From: an uncultured Spirochaetales bacterium
Lineage (GTDB): Bacteria; UBP6; UBA1177; CALOFP01
DNA: 36,659 nucleotides
Assembly: GCA_964542005.1 (NCBI GenBank)
Contig: CAZISX010000001.1
Span: forward strand, 51,071 to 87,729
Reading direction: 5' to 3'
Part shown: positions 28,415-35,235 of the stretch, in pieces
Numbering within the stretch: the first letter of the stretch is position 1
How the letters are laid out: each line of letters opens with the position of its first letter
Notes under the pieces: model-generated
Told to the model about the DNA's origin: nothing
The model's input: only the letters and a program-made list of their open reading frames with translations
Databases searched by the model: none
Position numbers and translations under genes: made by a program

Positions 28415-28449
28415 TTGATAACCTCAAAATAACAGTGTGGAGAAATCTG

Positions 28450-30336
28450 ATGCAAAGTTGTTCCTCTTTGTCGGTTCAAAGTTTTTTAAAATGGCGAGAG
28501 CTTGAAAACAAACATAAAGAGGCACTGTTCCCTCTTGTTGAAAAAACATTTCAAACTTTTTTCAGAATTTACAAAACAATAAAAATTTACAGAATAGATA
28601 ATCCTATTTTTAAAAATCAGCTCTCTGAGTTTATTGATCTTTTAAATCATATTGAATTTGTTGATGGATTTTCTGTTGCTGTCAGGAAAACAGGTTTTTA
28701 TTTTTTGAACAAAGAACTTGAGCTGGATGATGAGGAGTTTAAGCCATTTCTTAGAATGATGGTTACAAACGGAATTAAGGAGATGTTTTTTGCAAAAGGG
28801 ATTGATGCACCTGAAATTACAAGATTTTTTCTTATAGCTCAGAGATTTATTGCCCACAACGATTCTGACTCCGATATTTTGAGCACTTCGTGGGATGCAG
28901 GGATTGAACACCTTATTTTTATTACAGATATGGAGTCAGGAGATTCTGAAAATTTTCAGGAATTTGATTTTGAAAACAAGTCTGAAATCAATAATCTGGA
29001 AGAAATTTTGCCAATACTCTCAAATGAACTAATTAATATTGCCTCCAGCTTAAAATCCTCTGACAACAAATCACTTGAAGCTCTCCGGCAGGATTTTGAA
29101 AATTATTCTGAGGAGTCTGTTATTTGTGCCTATTTTGAGAGGCTTAAAATCCAGATTCTTGATGATAAAAACAAAGATTCTATTGGCGAAGTCATTGAAA
29201 TTATTAGTTTCTTTCCTGACAGGCTTCTTAACTCCTCCTCTATTCAATATGGTGCGGCTTTTTTCAAATCGCTTCTAGCCCTGGAAAGTACACTTAAAAA
29301 AACAAAAAGCCAGTATGCTGGCGAAATCACTGCTATTATTACTAAAATTACGAGCAATGATTTTATTGACAACATATTTGTCCAGGCAAAGCATATAAAA
29401 CCCGAAAAATACAACTCTTTTGCGGAAATGATAGGAATTATGTCATCCTACAATTTTGCTAGAATATTTATAAATTCGACAAATCTTGACAGCAAGGATT
29501 TACGACTGGTTTTTCTTTCAGCGATTGCTGGAAATATGAAGGAAATCAGCGTAGTTAAGGAGCTTATTGAGAGTGATGACTGGAAGCTTGTAAGAAATGT
29601 GTTATATCTGCTTGAGCTATCAAAAAATGCTGATTTTCTGCCACTAATCAGAAAAATTATAAATCATCCAATAGAACAGGTTCGGGTTGAAGCAATCTCT
29701 GTTTTATCAAAATATTCTGTGGAAGAAGCTCTTCCTATGCTTGAAAAAGCTATTTCAAGCGAAAACAAAGAGGTTCGGGCTCTGGCGGTAAAAAAGCTAT
29801 CTTCTTTGGGCTCTTTTAGAGCAAAAGCAATTCTTGATAGAGTTTTCAGGCCTGCAAATCTCAACAATTTCACAGCTGACGAGATTGAAGATTTTATAAA
29901 AATTGTTGCTGGCTCGGCAAACAGAGAGCTTTTTGACCTTGTCGGAAATCTTCTTTTTTATCAGAACAAAGAAATTAGAATTCGCTCAATGAAATACATC
30001 AAAAGACTTGGCAGTTCTGAAACGCTTTCAAGAATTGTTCTGAAAAAGATTTCTGATGAAGATTTTTTTAAAACAGAAAAAGATGAACTAACTGAATTTG
30101 TTAAGTTATTTGTTCCTGAAATTTTTGAAGACATACTTCCTGCTCTTGAAAAAATATGGACTCTTAAAGGTGGACTTTTTAACAGACATCAATTCATCGA
30201 AACAAAAAAAATAGTTATCTCTCAACTGATGATGTTCAAAACAAATATCAATATTGTCCGCTGGGTTTCCAAAGCTTTGAAATCTGGAGATGAGGAAACA
30301 ATCTCCATTATAAACAGTTTCAAGGAGAATAACTAA
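28450..30336 (+). CDS. HEAT-repeat protein whose N-terminal module is shared with the downstream gene
   Basis: I prefer ATG 28450, 6 nt after GGAGA, over the track's GTG 28435. HEAT/PBS-lyase-type repeats are present: 'DDWKLVRNVLYLLELSKNADFLPLIRKIINHPIEQVRVEAISVLSKY..EALPMLEKAISSENKEVRALAVKKLSSLGS'. The rest is helical, with no catalytic motif seen. Confidence 0.8.
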   Translation: MQSCSSLSVQSFLKWRELENKHKEALFPLVEKTFQTFFRIYKTIKIYRIDNPIFKNQLSEFIDLLNHIEFVDGFSVAVRKTGFYFLNKELELDDEEFKPFLRMMVTNGIKEMFFAKGIDAPEITRFFLIAQRFIAHNDSDSDILSTSWDAGIEHLIFITDMESGDSENFQEFDFENKSEINNLEEILPILSNELINIASSLKSSDNKSLEALRQDFENYSEESVICAYFERLKIQILDDKNKDSIGEVIEIISFFPDRLLNSSSIQYGAAFFKSLLALESTLKKTKSQYAGEITAIITKITSNDFIDNIFVQAKHIKPEKYNSFAEMIGIMSSYNFARIFINSTNLDSKDLRLVFLSAIAGNMKEISVVKELIESDDWKLVRNVLYLLELSKNADFLPLIRKIINHPIEQVRVEAISVLSKYSVEEALPMLEKAISSENKEVRALAVKKLSSLGSFRAKAILDRVFRPANLNNFTADEIEDFIKIVAGSANRELFDLVGNLLFYQNKEIRIRSMKYIKRLGSSETLSRIVLKKISDEDFFKTEKDELTEFVKLFVPEIFEDILPALEKIWTLKGGLFNRHQFIETKKIVISQLMMFKTNINIVRWVSKALKSGDEETISIINSFKENN

Positions 30337-30337
30337 G

Positions 30338-31804
30338 ATGACAAAAAATAAAAGAGAACAAAAAATCAGAGATATTTCACCAACCAGGCTTAGAGAAATT
30401 GAGCGAAAAAAGAAAAAATATGAGTTTGCCAAATCATTTTTTATTCTCTGGAAAGCAGCCAGAATGCACAATCTTGAAAACACTTCTTTCAAAGAGCTGC
30501 TTGAGGTTTTTATAGAAAATGCAGAATATCTTTTTGACTGGGCTGGCGGCATTACACTCAGCTTTGACGGAAATTCTATTAAAATCAATGACTTGGTTCT
30601 ACGAGGGCTTAGAAAAGAGGATGAATATCTTGATCATCTTGCAGAAATGATGCTTTCAATCGCTGTTGCTGAAATAATATTTCCAAAAGGAATAGAAGAA
30701 AAAAACATTGTAGAATTTCTTACAATTATTAAGGATTACTCGATTGAAGAGAAGCCTGACATTAAGATTTTTAATGAGATACAGCAAGTGCTTGCAAACC
30801 GTGAATCAAGAATCAGAATAATTTCTTATATTCCAGAAGAGCTGGCATTGCCAAGACTTTTTTCAAAAGCAGAATCCGCAAGAGAACTTTACAAAAAAAT
30901 GATTGAGGATTATAGCTCTGTCCAAATAAGTGTCGAAGAAAATGAGCCTGTTCCGCTGAAAGACGCGGTAAGAAATATTCAGAAACTTATTGATTTTATT
31001 AAAGATAGCTCTAAAGACAGTCAGTTTTACCATTTTCTTTTTTTAGCTACTCTCTCTGATTACAGGGCAGGCCGCATTGCATCTCATTCCACAAATACAG
31101 CTATTCTTTCCTGCATGATTGGGGTTAAGGCTGGCCTTGACAGACGAACTCTGAAATTACTTGTTTTATCCGCATATCTGCACGATGCCGGAATTGGTGA
31201 GATATTGGAACATGATATGGCAATTGACCATCTCGGTCATACAGAAAAAGGATTTAAGAGCTTAAGTAGAATGAATATTTTTAGAATAGAACATGTTTAC
31301 GCTTCAATTTGTGCAGCCTCGCATCATGATTATTACGATTTTGATGCAAGTATTTTAGAGACAACCAGTTGTTTATATTCGGGAATATTTGAGCAAATTG
31401 TTAGAATTGCCGATTTTTACGATTTAGCAACCCGTTACTGGCCTGAAATCAATAGTTCCAAAATGAGCCGAATTGCAGCATTATGCAAGATATTTGAAAA
31501 CACAAAAACCAATATTTTTAGAAAAGAGACGGCAGATGCAATGCTTTCTGTTTTGGGAATTTTTCCTCCCGGCTCGATTTTAAAAATCCAAAACGAAAAC
31601 TTATTTGCAGTTCCATATAAAGAAGTCTTTTCAACAACAGAAAAGGTTCCGTGTTTTGTTTTGGACAACAAACTTTCTTTTATCAGAAAAGATGAAATTG
31701 ATGCAACCTTACTGTTCGATTTTGAACAAAGCTCAAAACTTCACCTTCCATCCGCAACAACCTCTCTTTTACTAAATATGATTTATGAACAATATAACAA
31801 ATAG
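30338..31804 (+). CDS. HD-domain protein of HD-GYP type lacking the GYP motif
   Basis: Starts 1 nt after the upstream stop, with AAGGAG upstream. HD-type ligands are present: H250, 'LHDAGIG' (H282-D283), H301, 'SHHD' (H329-H330) and 'RIADFYDLATRYWP'. 'HHDYYDFDAS' replaces the HHExxDGxGYP signature. Confidence 0.7.
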   Translation: MTKNKREQKIRDISPTRLREIERKKKKYEFAKSFFILWKAARMHNLENTSFKELLEVFIENAEYLFDWAGGITLSFDGNSIKINDLVLRGLRKEDEYLDHLAEMMLSIAVAEIIFPKGIEEKNIVEFLTIIKDYSIEEKPDIKIFNEIQQVLANRESRIRIISYIPEELALPRLFSKAESARELYKKMIEDYSSVQISVEENEPVPLKDAVRNIQKLIDFIKDSSKDSQFYHFLFLATLSDYRAGRIASHSTNTAILSCMIGVKAGLDRRTLKLLVLSAYLHDAGIGEILEHDMAIDHLGHTEKGFKSLSRMNIFRIEHVYASICAASHHDYYDFDASILETTSCLYSGIFEQIVRIADFYDLATRYWPEINSSKMSRIAALCKIFENTKTNIFRKETADAMLSVLGIFPPGSILKIQNENLFAVPYKEVFSTTEKVPCFVLDNKLSFIRKDEIDATLLFDFEQSSKLHLPSATTSLLLNMIYEQYNK

Positions 31805-31806
31805 AA

Positions 31807-32766
31807 ATGACTGAAGAAACCGTACAAAAAATACTATCTGTCAGAGATATTGACGCAGGCAATACTCACACCTGGGATGAAGTTCTGGCTATCGCAATAA
31901 AAATTGCAGAAACACTAAATGCAATATATGGCAGAGAAAAAAGAGCAATAATAAATATCAGACCAGAATCTGTTTTTATCGAAAATGAGCGGATAAAAAT
32001 TGACTATTTTGAACATGAAACAAGCTGTGAAATATCGCATCATCAAACAGTAAAGGACGCTTACGAAGATTCTGCTTTTCTGGCACCGGAAGTTTCTGAT
32101 GGAGAAATCGGTTTTTACTCTGATATTTATTCTCTAGGAGGCGTTTTTTATATACTTTTTGGTGGTGATGAAGCTGATATTATTGAGGATAATGAGAATC
32201 TTGAATTCCCAGGGAAAATGCACAATCAGCTTCAGAGACTAATCCTCCAAATGCTTTCTCCTGATAAAGAAAAACGGCCAGATATTATCAAAGTTATTAA
32301 AAAACTCAGGGAAATCAAATATCACAGAGAGCATGTTTCTGTTGTTGGAAAGAGTTTTGTTTTGTTCTTTTTGATTGTCCTTCTTTTTGCATCAGGATTG
32401 AAGCTTTTTATTCAATATGATGTTCCAAATGTCAAAAGTGATGTAAACAGACTTGAGTTTCTGGTTGATGTTTTTACAACTTTGGATTCTGATCCCAAAA
32501 AAATTCCACAGGTTTTTGAGAAGAACTTCTTAAACGAACCGCTAAAAATCAAAGTAAAAGCTCTTGATGAAAAAAATTATGAGGCACAGACACCTGTGAA
32601 AATTGAGAACTCTACAATCAGCAACTTGAATATTTCAATTATTCAAAATGGAATATGGGCTTCTCCGGATTTATGTTCAGGAGCAGGAAAAACATATAAA
32701 TGCTCAGGTATTATGAAAAAAAATTCCGATGAAATGCTGATTTATTCAATATATCCGGCTAAATAA
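31807..32766 (+). CDS. membrane-anchored Ser/Thr-kinase-like pseudokinase (C-lobe only)
   Basis: Starts 2 nt after the upstream stop. 'AIINIRPESVFI' aligns to the HRDLKPEN catalytic loop with HRD changed to IIN and N changed to S. 'KIDYFE' stands for DFG. 'FLAPEV', 'SDIYSLGGVFYILFGG' and 'LSPDKEKRPD' are conserved C-lobe motifs. There is no Gly-loop, VAIK Lys or alpha-C region. A TM helix (aa ~183-203) is followed by a ~115-aa tail. Confidence 0.65.
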   Translation: MTEETVQKILSVRDIDAGNTHTWDEVLAIAIKIAETLNAIYGREKRAIINIRPESVFIENERIKIDYFEHETSCEISHHQTVKDAYEDSAFLAPEVSDGEIGFYSDIYSLGGVFYILFGGDEADIIEDNENLEFPGKMHNQLQRLILQMLSPDKEKRPDIIKVIKKLREIKYHREHVSVVGKSFVLFFLIVLLFASGLKLFIQYDVPNVKSDVNRLEFLVDVFTTLDSDPKKIPQVFEKNFLNEPLKIKVKALDEKNYEAQTPVKIENSTISNLNISIIQNGIWASPDLCSGAGKTYKCSGIMKKNSDEMLIYSIYPAK

Positions 32767-35235
32767 ACAAATTCACATTCGCAGCCTCAGCATTTTCCAG
32801 ATAACTCGCAACGCCGCCGATTGTAACTCCTTCCATCAACTCCTCTTTTTGGACACCCATTACATCCATTGACATCTGACATGCAACAAGTTCAATGCCA
32901 CTTTTTAATGCTGCGGCAATAAGTGACTCGAGCGAATCAACCTTCTTATCCGCCATCCGCTTTCTCATCATTATTGTGCCAAGCCCGAACATATTCATTT
33001 TGGAGAGTTTGAGATTTAGTGATGAGGAAGCCATCATCATGCCAAACATTTTGGACATAAAATCTTTTTTGAGTGCCGGTTTTTCCACTTTTTTGATAAC
33101 ATTCAGTCCCCAGAATGTGAAAAACATTGTAACTTTTTTGCCCATACTTGCTGCGCCATTTGCAATGACAAAACCCGCGAGAGCTTTATCCAGATCGTCA
33201 GAAAAAATAACCAGAGTCTTGCCATCAGCTCTTTCAACAAGCTGATTTTTCTCATTTTTTGCAGATTTTTCAATCAGAGCTGTAATTTTTCCCTTCTCAT
33301 TTTTGATTGATAACAGCTTGTTGCCTGTAACCCTGCACCACGATTCAGAATCTTTTTTAAACCCCTGATCTGTCGCTGTTATCTCGATTAAAGTTCCGAC
33401 AGAAGCTTTTTCCATCTCTTTTTTAAGCTGCATAATCGGGCCTGGACACTGCAAACCGCACGCATTTACCTCAATCTTACTTGCCACAACCTGTTCGGAT
33501 TTCGCACTGTTTTCCCTAGGTTCTGACTGATAAATCATATCATCTTTCCCAATAAAATCATTTTTGAAAATATCCTCATTTGACTGTTTCTGGGTTGCAT
33601 GCTCCCATGTTTTGTAGCGGCCGGAAAGATTGAAAACATTAGCACATCCGAGCTGTAGCAAAATTCTCGAAGCAACATAACCTCGCAAACCAACGCCGCA
33701 GAAAAGGAGTATCTCCTTATCTTTCGGGATTTCATTAATCCTGCTTCTTATTTCATCAAGAGGAATATTTTTCGCACCTTCAATTGTGCCGAGTGCGAAC
33801 TCATCCGTGGTTCTCACATCAATCAGGCAGTGGCTCTCTTTTGTCGTGTTTTTAATATCGTACCACTGAACAACTTTTGTCCGTCCTTTTAAAATATTTT
33901 CAGCCGCAAAACCTGTTATATTTGTTATATCTTTTGCCGAAGCATAAGGCGGCGCGTAGGCGTGCTCAATATCCTGAAGATCATAAACCGTGCCGTTGTT
34001 TTTTATCACGGTCGCAAAAAGATCAATCCTCTTGTCAACACCGTCAAAACCCACAATCTGAGCACCAAGCAACCTCCCATTTTCAGGAGAAAAAACAATT
34101 TTCACACTCATCGCAAGAGCATCGGGATAGTATCCAGCATGGGATGATGGATGGATAATTAGCGTTTTGTATGGAATACTCAGTGTTTTCAATAGCTTTT
34201 CCGAAACTCCGGCTGAAGCTACGGTTAAATCAAACACTTTTGCAATTGCAGTATTTATCGAGCCTATATATTTTGTGGTGTTGCCGAAAACAATGTTGTC
34301 AGCAACAATTCTTCCCTGTTTGTTTGCCGGCCCTGCCAGATAAGTTATTGTTTTCTTTTGAGTTATAGGGTTTGTAAATTCAATAGCATCGCCAAGCGCG
34401 TAAATATCAGGATCGCTTGTCTGGAGAAATGAACAGAAATACCGCCAGTTTCACCAATCTCAAGCCCACCATTTTTAGCAAGCGAGCTTTCGGGTCTGAC
34501 TCCGATTGAAAGAATCACGATATCTGCCGGAATTGTCTTTGAATTTGAAAGAGTTACCATAATTCTGCCAGATTCTTTTGCAAACGAGGAAACACCGCTG
34601 CCGAGATAAAATTCGACATCCTTGCTTTTGAGATGCTGGTGAACCTCTGCTGCCATTTCGTAATCAAGCGGAGTCATAACCTGATCTGCAGCCTCGACAA
34701 TTGTTGTTAAAATTCCGGCATTGTGAAGGTTTTCAGCCATTTCAAGCCCAATAAAACCAGCACCAACAATCACAGCTTTTTTCGGTTTTTTCTCATCAAT
34801 ATACTTTTTGATTCTGTCAGTGTCGGGAACATTTCTTAAAGTAAAAATCCCCTCCTCATTAATTCCTGGAATCCTCGGGCGGAGCGGTTCCGCGCCTGGC
34901 GACAAAATCAGTTTGTCGTAAGTTTCCCAATAAATTTCACCGGTTTCAAGATTTTTAACCTCAACTTTTTTAGCAGCTTTATCAATCGAAACAACCTCAC
35001 TTAAAGCCCTGACAACAACATTAAATCTGGCGTTGAAACTCTCGGGTGTTTGAACAAAAAGATTGGCTCTTTCCTTAATAGTTCCGCCAACATAGTAGGG
35101 AAGTCCACAGTTTGCGTAGCTGATATATTCCCCTCTTTCAAACATAATAATTTCAGCAGATTCATCAAGCCTTCTAAGCCTGGCAGCAGTTGTCGCGCCA
35201 CCCGCAACACCGCCGACAATCAAATATTTCGCCAT
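32759..35235 (-). pseudogene. multidomain CoA-disulfide/persulfide reductase (FAD oxidoreductase-rhodanese-TusA-DsrE-like), reading frame broken by a 1-nt frameshift
   Basis: The N-terminal piece (35235..34363) has 'LIVGGVAGGATTAARL' and the redox Cys context 'SYANCGLPYY'. The downstream frame, open from ~34465, continues 'LQTSDPDIYALGDAIEF...', which is the expected next motif. It then carries the rhodanese motif 'LLFCGVGLRGY', the TusA motif 'ACGLQCPGPI' and the DsrE-like segment 'LVIFSDDLDKALAGFVIANGAA'. The track ORFs 34363..35235 and 32759..34237 are two halves of one ~825-aa gene. Confidence 0.8.
34427..34429 (-). other. probable frameshift site (homopolymer)
   Basis: The coding strand reads GGT ATT TCT GTT CAT TTC TCC AGA. 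Adding one T to the TTT run gives ...GTT CAT TTT CTC CAG ACA AGC GAT CCT = GGISVHFLQTSDPDIY, which joins the two frames. The neighbouring run at 34437-34439 is an alternative site. Confidence 0.5.

Follow-up and report, generated by a model that had tools for sequence, protein, structure and literature searches.

Receptor-type Hanks kinases of the PknB type consist of a kinase domain, a transmembrane (TM) helix and an outside sensor; PknB itself is active and carries PASTA repeats. MviN of Mycobacterium tuberculosis has a bacterial pseudokinase domain without catalytic residues. To our knowledge, these kinases and pseudokinase domains all have the full two-lobe fold and none is reduced to the C-terminal lobe (C-lobe). 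A narrow literature search returned no described bacterial kinase domain lacking the N-terminal lobe (N-lobe). In eukaryotes, a stand-alone kinase C-lobe serves as a protein-docking module in KIND (PMC3415841). Here we describe P0001, a 319-residue protein encoded by the last of three closely packed genes (gene 1, gene 2 and gene 3) in a 36,659-nucleotide stretch of DNA from an uncultured Spirochaetales bacterium, which we call the window (GTDB lineage Bacteria; UBP6; UBA1177; CALOFP01; assembly GCA_964542005.1, contig CAZISX010000001.1, positions 51,071 to 87,729). In P0001 a kinase C-lobe is followed by a TM helix and then by a conserved outside domain. We consider it a catalytically dead, lineage-specific truncation, in which the C-lobe is either a vestige or a scaffold, and we give this reading a probability of about 0.65.

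Like P0001, the PknB-like kinases and the MviN-type pseudokinases show a cytoplasmic kinase fold, a single TM helix and an outside domain. KIND (structure 2YLE) shares another property with P0001, the kinase C-lobe fold alone, with no N-lobe and no catalytic function. However, KIND is a conserved, soluble, eukaryotic family, while P0001 comes from one bacterial genome and is anchored in the membrane, and any docking by P0001 would be putative. KIND was not among the Pfam models matched by P0001, the presence of a KIND model among the Pfam models being unverified; with Pfam at E<=10 only Pkinase, PK_Tyr_Ser-Thr and a spurious Dynein_light came up. The sole orthologue of P0001 is P0002, a 389-residue protein of the sister genus (GCA_942492635.1, contig CALOFP010000001.1), which is the only other genome of the same family. 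The features of gene 3 are listed below; the motifs were read from alignments, including those to hidden Markov models (HMMs).

31807..32766, plus strand: gene 3, encoding the bitopic membrane protein P0001, 319 residues (list of open reading frames, ORFs)
31846..32331, plus strand: kinase C-lobe, residues 14-175, alphaD to alphaI (Pfam Pkinase, AlphaFold2, Foldseek, 28.0% identity to P0002)
31945..31971, plus strand: degenerate catalytic loop AIINIRPES, replacing xHRDLKPEN (HMM and MAFFT alignments)
32002..32013, plus strand: apparently degenerate DFG motif, D66-Y67-F68-E69 (HMM and MAFFT alignments)
32083..32091, plus strand: APE motif, A93-P94-E95, with E95 retained (alignments)
32119..32139, plus strand: alphaF motif S105-DIYSLG-111 (SDIYSLG), with D106 and G111 invariant in the alignment (alignments)
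32272..32280, plus strand: K156-R157-P158 with the alphaH-I arginine (alignments)
32353..32418, plus strand: single TM helix (residues 183-204), which extends alphaI in the model (Kyte-Doolittle, model)
32422..32763, plus strand: extracytoplasmic domain (residues 206-319) of an order-wide small-protein family, rich in beta structure from residue ~241 on (HMM, alignment, order and phylum scans)
32701..32721, plus strand: family signature C-x-G-x-M-K-K, here CSGIMKK (family alignment)

The Pfam Pkinase profile (PF00069) matched P0001 with E 7.7e-8 and 32.5 bits, above the gathering cut-off of 31.7, and aligned residues 21-164 with profile positions 95-258 of 263. When the whole genome was searched with Pkinase in six frames, gene 3 covered positions 85-258. 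The AlphaFold2 model, based on a 44-sequence alignment, folded residues 11-170 as a kinase C-lobe, with a predicted local distance difference test score (pLDDT) of about 90-97 over most of them and lower values (83, 52 and 75) in the activation-loop blocks of residues 61-90. Foldseek against the PDB matched P0001 to protein kinases exclusively, with probability 1.0 over about 170-190 aligned columns. Therefore, the kinase similarity is real and confined to the C-lobe. A preliminary description made from the sequence of the window had already proposed a membrane-anchored kinase C-lobe without an N-lobe, and the profile search and structure prediction which it named as checks both supported that proposal.

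To assign motifs, P0001 was aligned with twitchin by HMMER and with 43 kinase hits by MAFFT. P0001 starts at about strand beta5, the hinge and alphaD (residues 8-22), and not at alphaE as first described; alphaE spans residues 23-44. In the catalytic loop A47 is followed by I48-I49-N50-I51-R52-P53-E54-S55, with the HRD aspartate replaced by N50, the lysine by R52 and the Mg-binding asparagine by S55. The alignments put Y67-F68-E69 on D-F-G; the preceding residue, D66, could take the aspartate position if the register moved by one. The Gly-rich loop, the beta3 lysine (VAIK) and the alphaC glutamate are absent from P0001. The core of the C-lobe is retained: E95, D106, G111 and R157 stand in invariant or nearly invariant columns and have pLDDT >90. 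In kinases the conserved arginine at the position of R157 pairs with the APE glutamate. Where alphaG would be expected, the model shows no more than a short helix (residues 122-127). The motif readings of the preliminary description (IINIRPES, an altered DFG, retained APE, DIYSLG and RP, no N-lobe landmarks) thus agree with both alignments. Sequence and model support a C-lobe that folds, and with the N-lobe and the catalytic residues gone, ATP binding and phosphotransfer appear as implausible as was initially suggested.

A word-based search of 5.8 billion proteins matched P0001 only with itself, and a scan of genome contigs with P0001 as the query gave no match. An exhaustive HMMER search of 1.84 billion representatives gave 63 matches at E<=1e-3, and P0002 was the only one aligning end to end. 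Residues 14-314 of P0001 and 88-385 of P0002 are collinear over the C-lobe, the TM helix and the outside domain. Identity is 28.0% in the C-lobe (45/161) and 28.1% in the outside domain (27/96), similar to the 27-28% between the gene 1 and gene 2 orthologues of the same two genomes. Unlike P0001, P0002 has an N-lobe. Its 87 additional N-terminal residues include a Gly-rich stretch and a 'VLIKV' lysine, and its model shows five N-lobe strands (beta1-beta5) and a vestigial alphaC; this N-lobe is degenerate. The catalytic loop of P0002 reads L-G-E-F-S-P-K-N, with glutamate for the aspartate and serine for the lysine. Both proteins have lost these two residues, whereas the DFG motif and the catalytic-loop asparagine are kept in P0002 only. 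Since the P0002 loop has lost the aspartate and the lysine, catalysis was already degenerate while the protein was two-lobed. The Pkinase signal of P0002 (35.1 bits) is similar to that of P0001. Compared to P0002, the nucleotide- and metal-binding residues of P0001 have drifted further while the fold-defining residues are kept. The preliminary description had reasoned that orthologues with a normal N-lobe would indicate a local truncation or a misassembly. The sole orthologue does carry an N-lobe, which points to a local truncation; a misassembly is unlikely, as three assemblies agree (see below).

Other C-lobe-only entries in the databases were rejected as artefacts: P0039 begins at base 16 of a contig of 1.5 kb, and the contig of P0021 measures 688 bp. 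In P0008 (L144:2276-3610) the start was called too late, as the frame is open for 75 codons upstream and encodes a normal Gly-rich loop and an 'AIK' lysine. As P0008 shows, C-lobe-only entries in protein collections need a start-site check.

The N-lobe was not found anywhere else. The three frames upstream of gene 3 contained no kinase-like sequence and no N-lobe remnant. The N-terminal 95 residues of P0002 gave nothing by tblastn against the whole genome (best E 0.36). The whole-genome Pkinase search returned 11 matches with N-lobe positions, the C-lobe of gene 3 and one sub-threshold match (positions 59-149), and no N-lobe-only piece in six frames. The C-terminus of gene 2 was considered as a surrogate N-lobe and rejected. 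The gene 2 orthologues in the order have equal length and can be aligned to about residue 485 of 488, so this C-terminus is the conserved end of its own family, present in all orthologues without gene 3, and hides no N-lobe. The upstream gene had been described as ending in unrelated sequence, which holds.

Several of the 11 N-lobe-including matches (contigs C19, C23, C42 and C34) lie in very long open frames of 1086-2180 aa, and one Pkinase-bearing open frame of about 1560 aa has same-sized relatives across the order. A kinase paralogue on contig C29 was rejected as a related case, being a normal, active-looking kinase. The PADLOC and NCBIfam matches to defence kinases (MkoA, mad6, PD-T4-6, PglW and LanL) were also discarded; they reflect generic partial kinase similarity and fall far under the cut-offs.

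The second half of P0001 is the conserved core of the protein. The top 19-residue Kyte-Doolittle window scores 2.68 and begins at residue 184. This is the single hydrophobic segment, no signal peptide was found in P0001, and four K/R residues flank the TM helix on the N-side versus two on the C-side. P0001 is most likely an inner-membrane protein with its N-terminus inside and its C-terminus outside. In the AlphaFold2 model a long helix (residues 160-205) enters the membrane segment and is followed by a beta-rich domain (residues 241-317) of lower confidence. In the first genome scan residues 187-313 matched a 159-aa ORF without a kinase part from another family of the order. An HMM was built from nine kinase-less members of this small-protein family, with P0001 and P0002 excluded. 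Among the 17,512 ORFs of the genome it found P0001 (residues 188-317, E 3.8e-11) and nothing else, and it matched P0002 at residues 257-384 (E 2.9e-12). Conserved in the family alignment are P-x-x-I-x-V, a Phe, C-R-G-I-M-K-K and a Cys at the end. P0001 retains the first conserved Cys (C299) and has the second one replaced; P0002 has neither. The single TM helix of the preliminary description was correct, but its short tail is an order-conserved domain of about 115 aa, and of the two tail cysteines, which are present, only C299 is the family's conserved Cys.

The analysis covered 36 genomes of the order and 39 of the phylum. By profile scan the family is single-copy in 31 of the 36 order genomes, including the window genome, and it was not found in the three other phylum genomes. 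The open frames measure 152-211 aa in 29 genomes, 395 aa in the sister genome and 322 aa in the window genome, and a kinase-like extension occurs only in the last two, which are the two genomes of the taxonomic family of the window genome. The small proteins thus resemble P0001 in the TM helix, the outside domain, the family signature and the one copy per genome. They differ from it in having no kinase part; most have two conserved cysteines and many adjoin a gene for a coiled-coil protein. This secreted protein (about 425-495 aa) has a coiled coil rich in K, E and R; its C-terminal domain is TPR-like and contains Cys, with the sequence 'KCECEEDAK'. It is found in all 36 order genomes with 46-61% identity. 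Judged by coordinates, 14 genomes, among them the sister genome, have a small gene immediately 5' of the coiled-coil gene; nine of them were inspected ORF by ORF. The 159-aa ORF adjoins a homologue of the coiled-coil gene that lies downstream of P0002. In eight genomes besides that of this ORF, the small proteins encoded upstream of the coiled-coil gene have 146-200 aa and consist of a short, basic N-terminal part, a TM helix and the outside domain. Neither the small family nor the coiled-coil protein matched any model in Pfam or NCBIfam. The gene pairs are located as follows.

Loci L113-L141 and L006:1426-1905: small bitopic/coiled-coil gene pair in relatives (ORF inspection)
Contig C31:2381-3652, minus strand: coiled-coil gene of the window genome (contig inspection)

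In the window genome the pair is split: upstream of the coiled-coil gene on C31 there is a spacer of 420 nucleotides and then a divergent gene, with no family member adjacent. Judged by gene adjacency in the relatives, the outside domain of P0001 would probably carry out the original task of its family in concert with the secreted coiled-coil protein.

Gene 3 instead follows a HEAT-HD gene pair, in a unit whose neighbours are an ATP-synthase gene (divergent) and a flavoprotein gene (convergent).

28435..30336, plus strand: gene 1, HEAT-repeat protein (Pfam HEAT_2, E 2.2e-17)
30338..31804, plus strand: gene 2, 488-aa HD-domain protein (Pfam HD, E 0.0011)
31802..31809, plus strand: gene 2/gene 3 junction TAG-AA-ATG (sequence reading)

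The intergenic gaps are 1 nucleotide (gene 1-gene 2) and 2 nucleotides (gene 2-gene 3). The preliminary description had regarded P0001 as a purpose-built N-lobe-less pseudokinase acting with genes 1 and 2, which the relatives do not bear out. Full-length gene 2 orthologues are present in all 36 order genomes (29-34% identity), usually with a second paralogue, and gene 2 follows gene 1 in 5/5 neighbourhoods inspected. In none of these five relatives does gene 3 come after the pair. A different gene was seen each time; these include a metallophosphoesterase-like gene, large BadF/HgdC-type ATPase fusions and convergent genes. The P0002 gene sits between mgtE and the coiled-coil gene, with the HEAT-HD pair on another contig. 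Gene 3 adjoins genes 1 and 2 in this genome alone, a new arrangement, and there is no comparative support for a three-gene module.

The coding quality of gene 3 is normal. Its codon-usage score is 0.307 compared to a genome mean of 0.321 +/- 0.068, and both halves, the C-lobe (0.328) and the TM/outside part (0.281), fall within this range. All 319 codons are open in a genome with 35% G+C. The frame has a TAA stop three codons 5' of the ATG. No promoter- or terminator-like sites were found in the region beyond their frequency in shuffled sequence.

The source is a metagenome-assembled genome (MAG) of about 4 Mb in 245 contigs, 92% complete. Two contigs from other assemblies, one of 35 kb from a JGI metagenome (sample 3300020048) and one of 3 kb from ENA (ERZ27262924), carry the identical P0001 protein and DNA, and the DNA across the gene 2/gene 3 junction is 100% identical in the three. 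Since the three assemblies agree on the junction, a misassembly is unlikely. No repeats or mobile-element scars were found at the junction. One 117-bp difference between assemblies sits 1.7 kb downstream of it.

We propose the following history. The ancestral protein would have been a small bitopic envelope protein with a short cytoplasmic N-terminus, a TM helix and an outside domain of about 115 aa. In the family of the window genome and the sister genus, a Hanks-type kinase domain would have been fused to its cytoplasmic end, giving a receptor-kinase-like layout with an already degenerate catalytic loop. In the window lineage the gene would then have been cut at about strand beta5 and relocated two nucleotides behind the stop codon of the HEAT-HD pair; presumably it now shares a transcript with that pair and is translated by coupling. 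The C-lobe that remains may be a vestige that has not eroded yet, or a docking or dimerisation domain in the manner of KIND. If it was retained for a purpose, the surface used for docking or dimerisation could be the one that once faced the N-lobe and is now exposed, or that of alphaF-alphaI. The order of events was examined in a tree of the C-terminal domain of the coiled-coil protein, rooted on a paralogue from the window genome, in which the root separates family f6 from f1, f4 and f5, which group together. Because kinase-less forms stand on both sides of this root, the tree favours one acquisition of the kinase domain, in f1, and a later loss of the N-lobe in the window lineage.

Several observations weigh against the proposed truncation history. 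The root depends on one long-branch paralogue and the relevant supports are weak (0.47-0.57), and a kinase domain that was ancestral and then lost elsewhere is a conceivable course of events. The truncated form is known from one genome or population, and the three assemblies show no sequence variation. The C-lobe is conserved to P0002 as well as the functional outside domain is, at about 28%. Since both this conservation and the Pkinase signal match P0002, the C-lobe seems to be more than junk and may have a real function. No Shine-Dalgarno sequence precedes the ATG of gene 3, whereas gene 2 has AAGGAG 10 nucleotides 5' of its ATG, so that initiation at M1 of gene 3 would require coupling with gene 2. 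Finally, products started at internal methionines would fall within the size range of the family (below).

If the truncation reading holds, we regard a real scaffold role as a serious prospect, well short of an even chance. In its most specific form, selection would have retained the C-lobe for docking on its own, like a KIND domain in a prokaryote, and the C-lobe would tether one or both of the HEAT and HD proteins, or some other partner, to the envelope protein; an outside-facing domain would thereby be linked to signalling in the cytoplasm with no phosphotransfer. We consider this form possible but tentative. The step from there to a dedicated interaction platform, with genes 1-3 forming one HEAT, HD and pseudokinase signalling module, we hold to be unlikely. 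The 1-nt and 2-nt same-strand junctions in a unit bounded by divergent and convergent genes would fit such a module, as would the kept structural residues of a C-lobe conserved equally with the outside domain, and kinase C-lobes can serve alone as docking domains, e.g. KIND (PMC3415841). But the HEAT-HD pair occurs in 36/36 order genomes and goes without gene 3 in 5/5 inspected, and P0002 is encoded beside the coiled-coil gene on a different contig from the pair, which leaves the adjacency unique to the window genome. A different doubt concerns the protein itself, since the C-lobe part could stay untranslated if the true start were M138 or M149, giving a product of about 170-180 aa. The missing Shine-Dalgarno sequence at M1 and a purine-rich AGGGA just before the M138 ATG speak for this, and the 182- or 171-aa products lie inside the 152-211-aa range of the family. 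However, the AGGGA is 2-3 nucleotides from the ATG, too close for a typical Shine-Dalgarno site. Moreover, 137 open codons before M138 would arise by chance with a probability of only about 4e-5 (own estimate, with a stop frequency of ~0.07 per codon at 35% G+C), and the C-lobe has a normal coding score (0.328) and a well-predicted fold. We consider an internal start improbable.

The remaining explanations take gene 3 for something broken. A pseudogene dying after a rearrangement would be in keeping with the 5' truncation, the occurrence in a single genome and a split CoA-disulfide-reductase-like gene in the neighbourhood. Against this, gene 3 is the sole genome copy of a family that is single-copy in 31/36 genomes, and its ORF is intact, with normal codon usage and the family signature present, which makes decay of the whole ORF very improbable. 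The idea of a split kinase, in which an N-lobe encoded elsewhere joins this C-lobe, has no direct support apart from a genome that is just 92% complete. It conflicts with the empty six-frame and tblastn searches for an N-lobe and with the loss of the catalytic residues from the C-lobe itself, and we give it hardly any weight. A chimeric join of gene 2 and a kinase gene during assembly is the least credible of all. A 245-contig MAG and the 117-bp difference downstream might raise the suspicion, but the junction has no repeat and is 100% identical on the 35-kb JGI and 3-kb ENA contigs.

Returning to the truncation reading, P0001 is most likely an evolutionary curiosity and not a new signalling system. 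A functional C-lobe would make P0001 a bacterial example of what has so far been described for eukaryotic KIND, a kinase C-lobe that acts by itself in protein interaction, and would show one route by which such a domain can originate: fusion, loss of catalysis and then loss of the N-lobe. If the C-lobe is a vestige only, the locus would be a snapshot of domain decay, with no kinase part, a full pseudokinase and half of one among the orthologues of a single order. The more useful by-product may be the uncharacterised, order-restricted gene pair of the small bitopic and the secreted coiled-coil protein, which recruited a kinase-like domain in one family.

Some minor observations concern the neighbouring genes. 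The CoA-disulfide-reductase/rhodanese/TusA/DsrE-like gene is split on the minus strand into 32759..34237 (492 aa) and 34363..35235 (290 aa), with the split region at 34237-34550. The JGI contig is without window positions 34434-34548 (117 bp, 39 codons), which shortens the N-terminal ORF from 290 to 251 aa and leaves the gene still split. The Pfam HD score of gene 2 is 19.6 bits, under the 22-bit threshold. For gene 1, ATG 28451 is a more likely start than the listed GTG 28435, as GGAG lies 8 nucleotides upstream of this ATG. Genes 1 and 2 share an N-terminal module of about 120 aa, with window positions 28492-28869 matching gene 2 residues 18-141 at 25% identity (E 4e-4).

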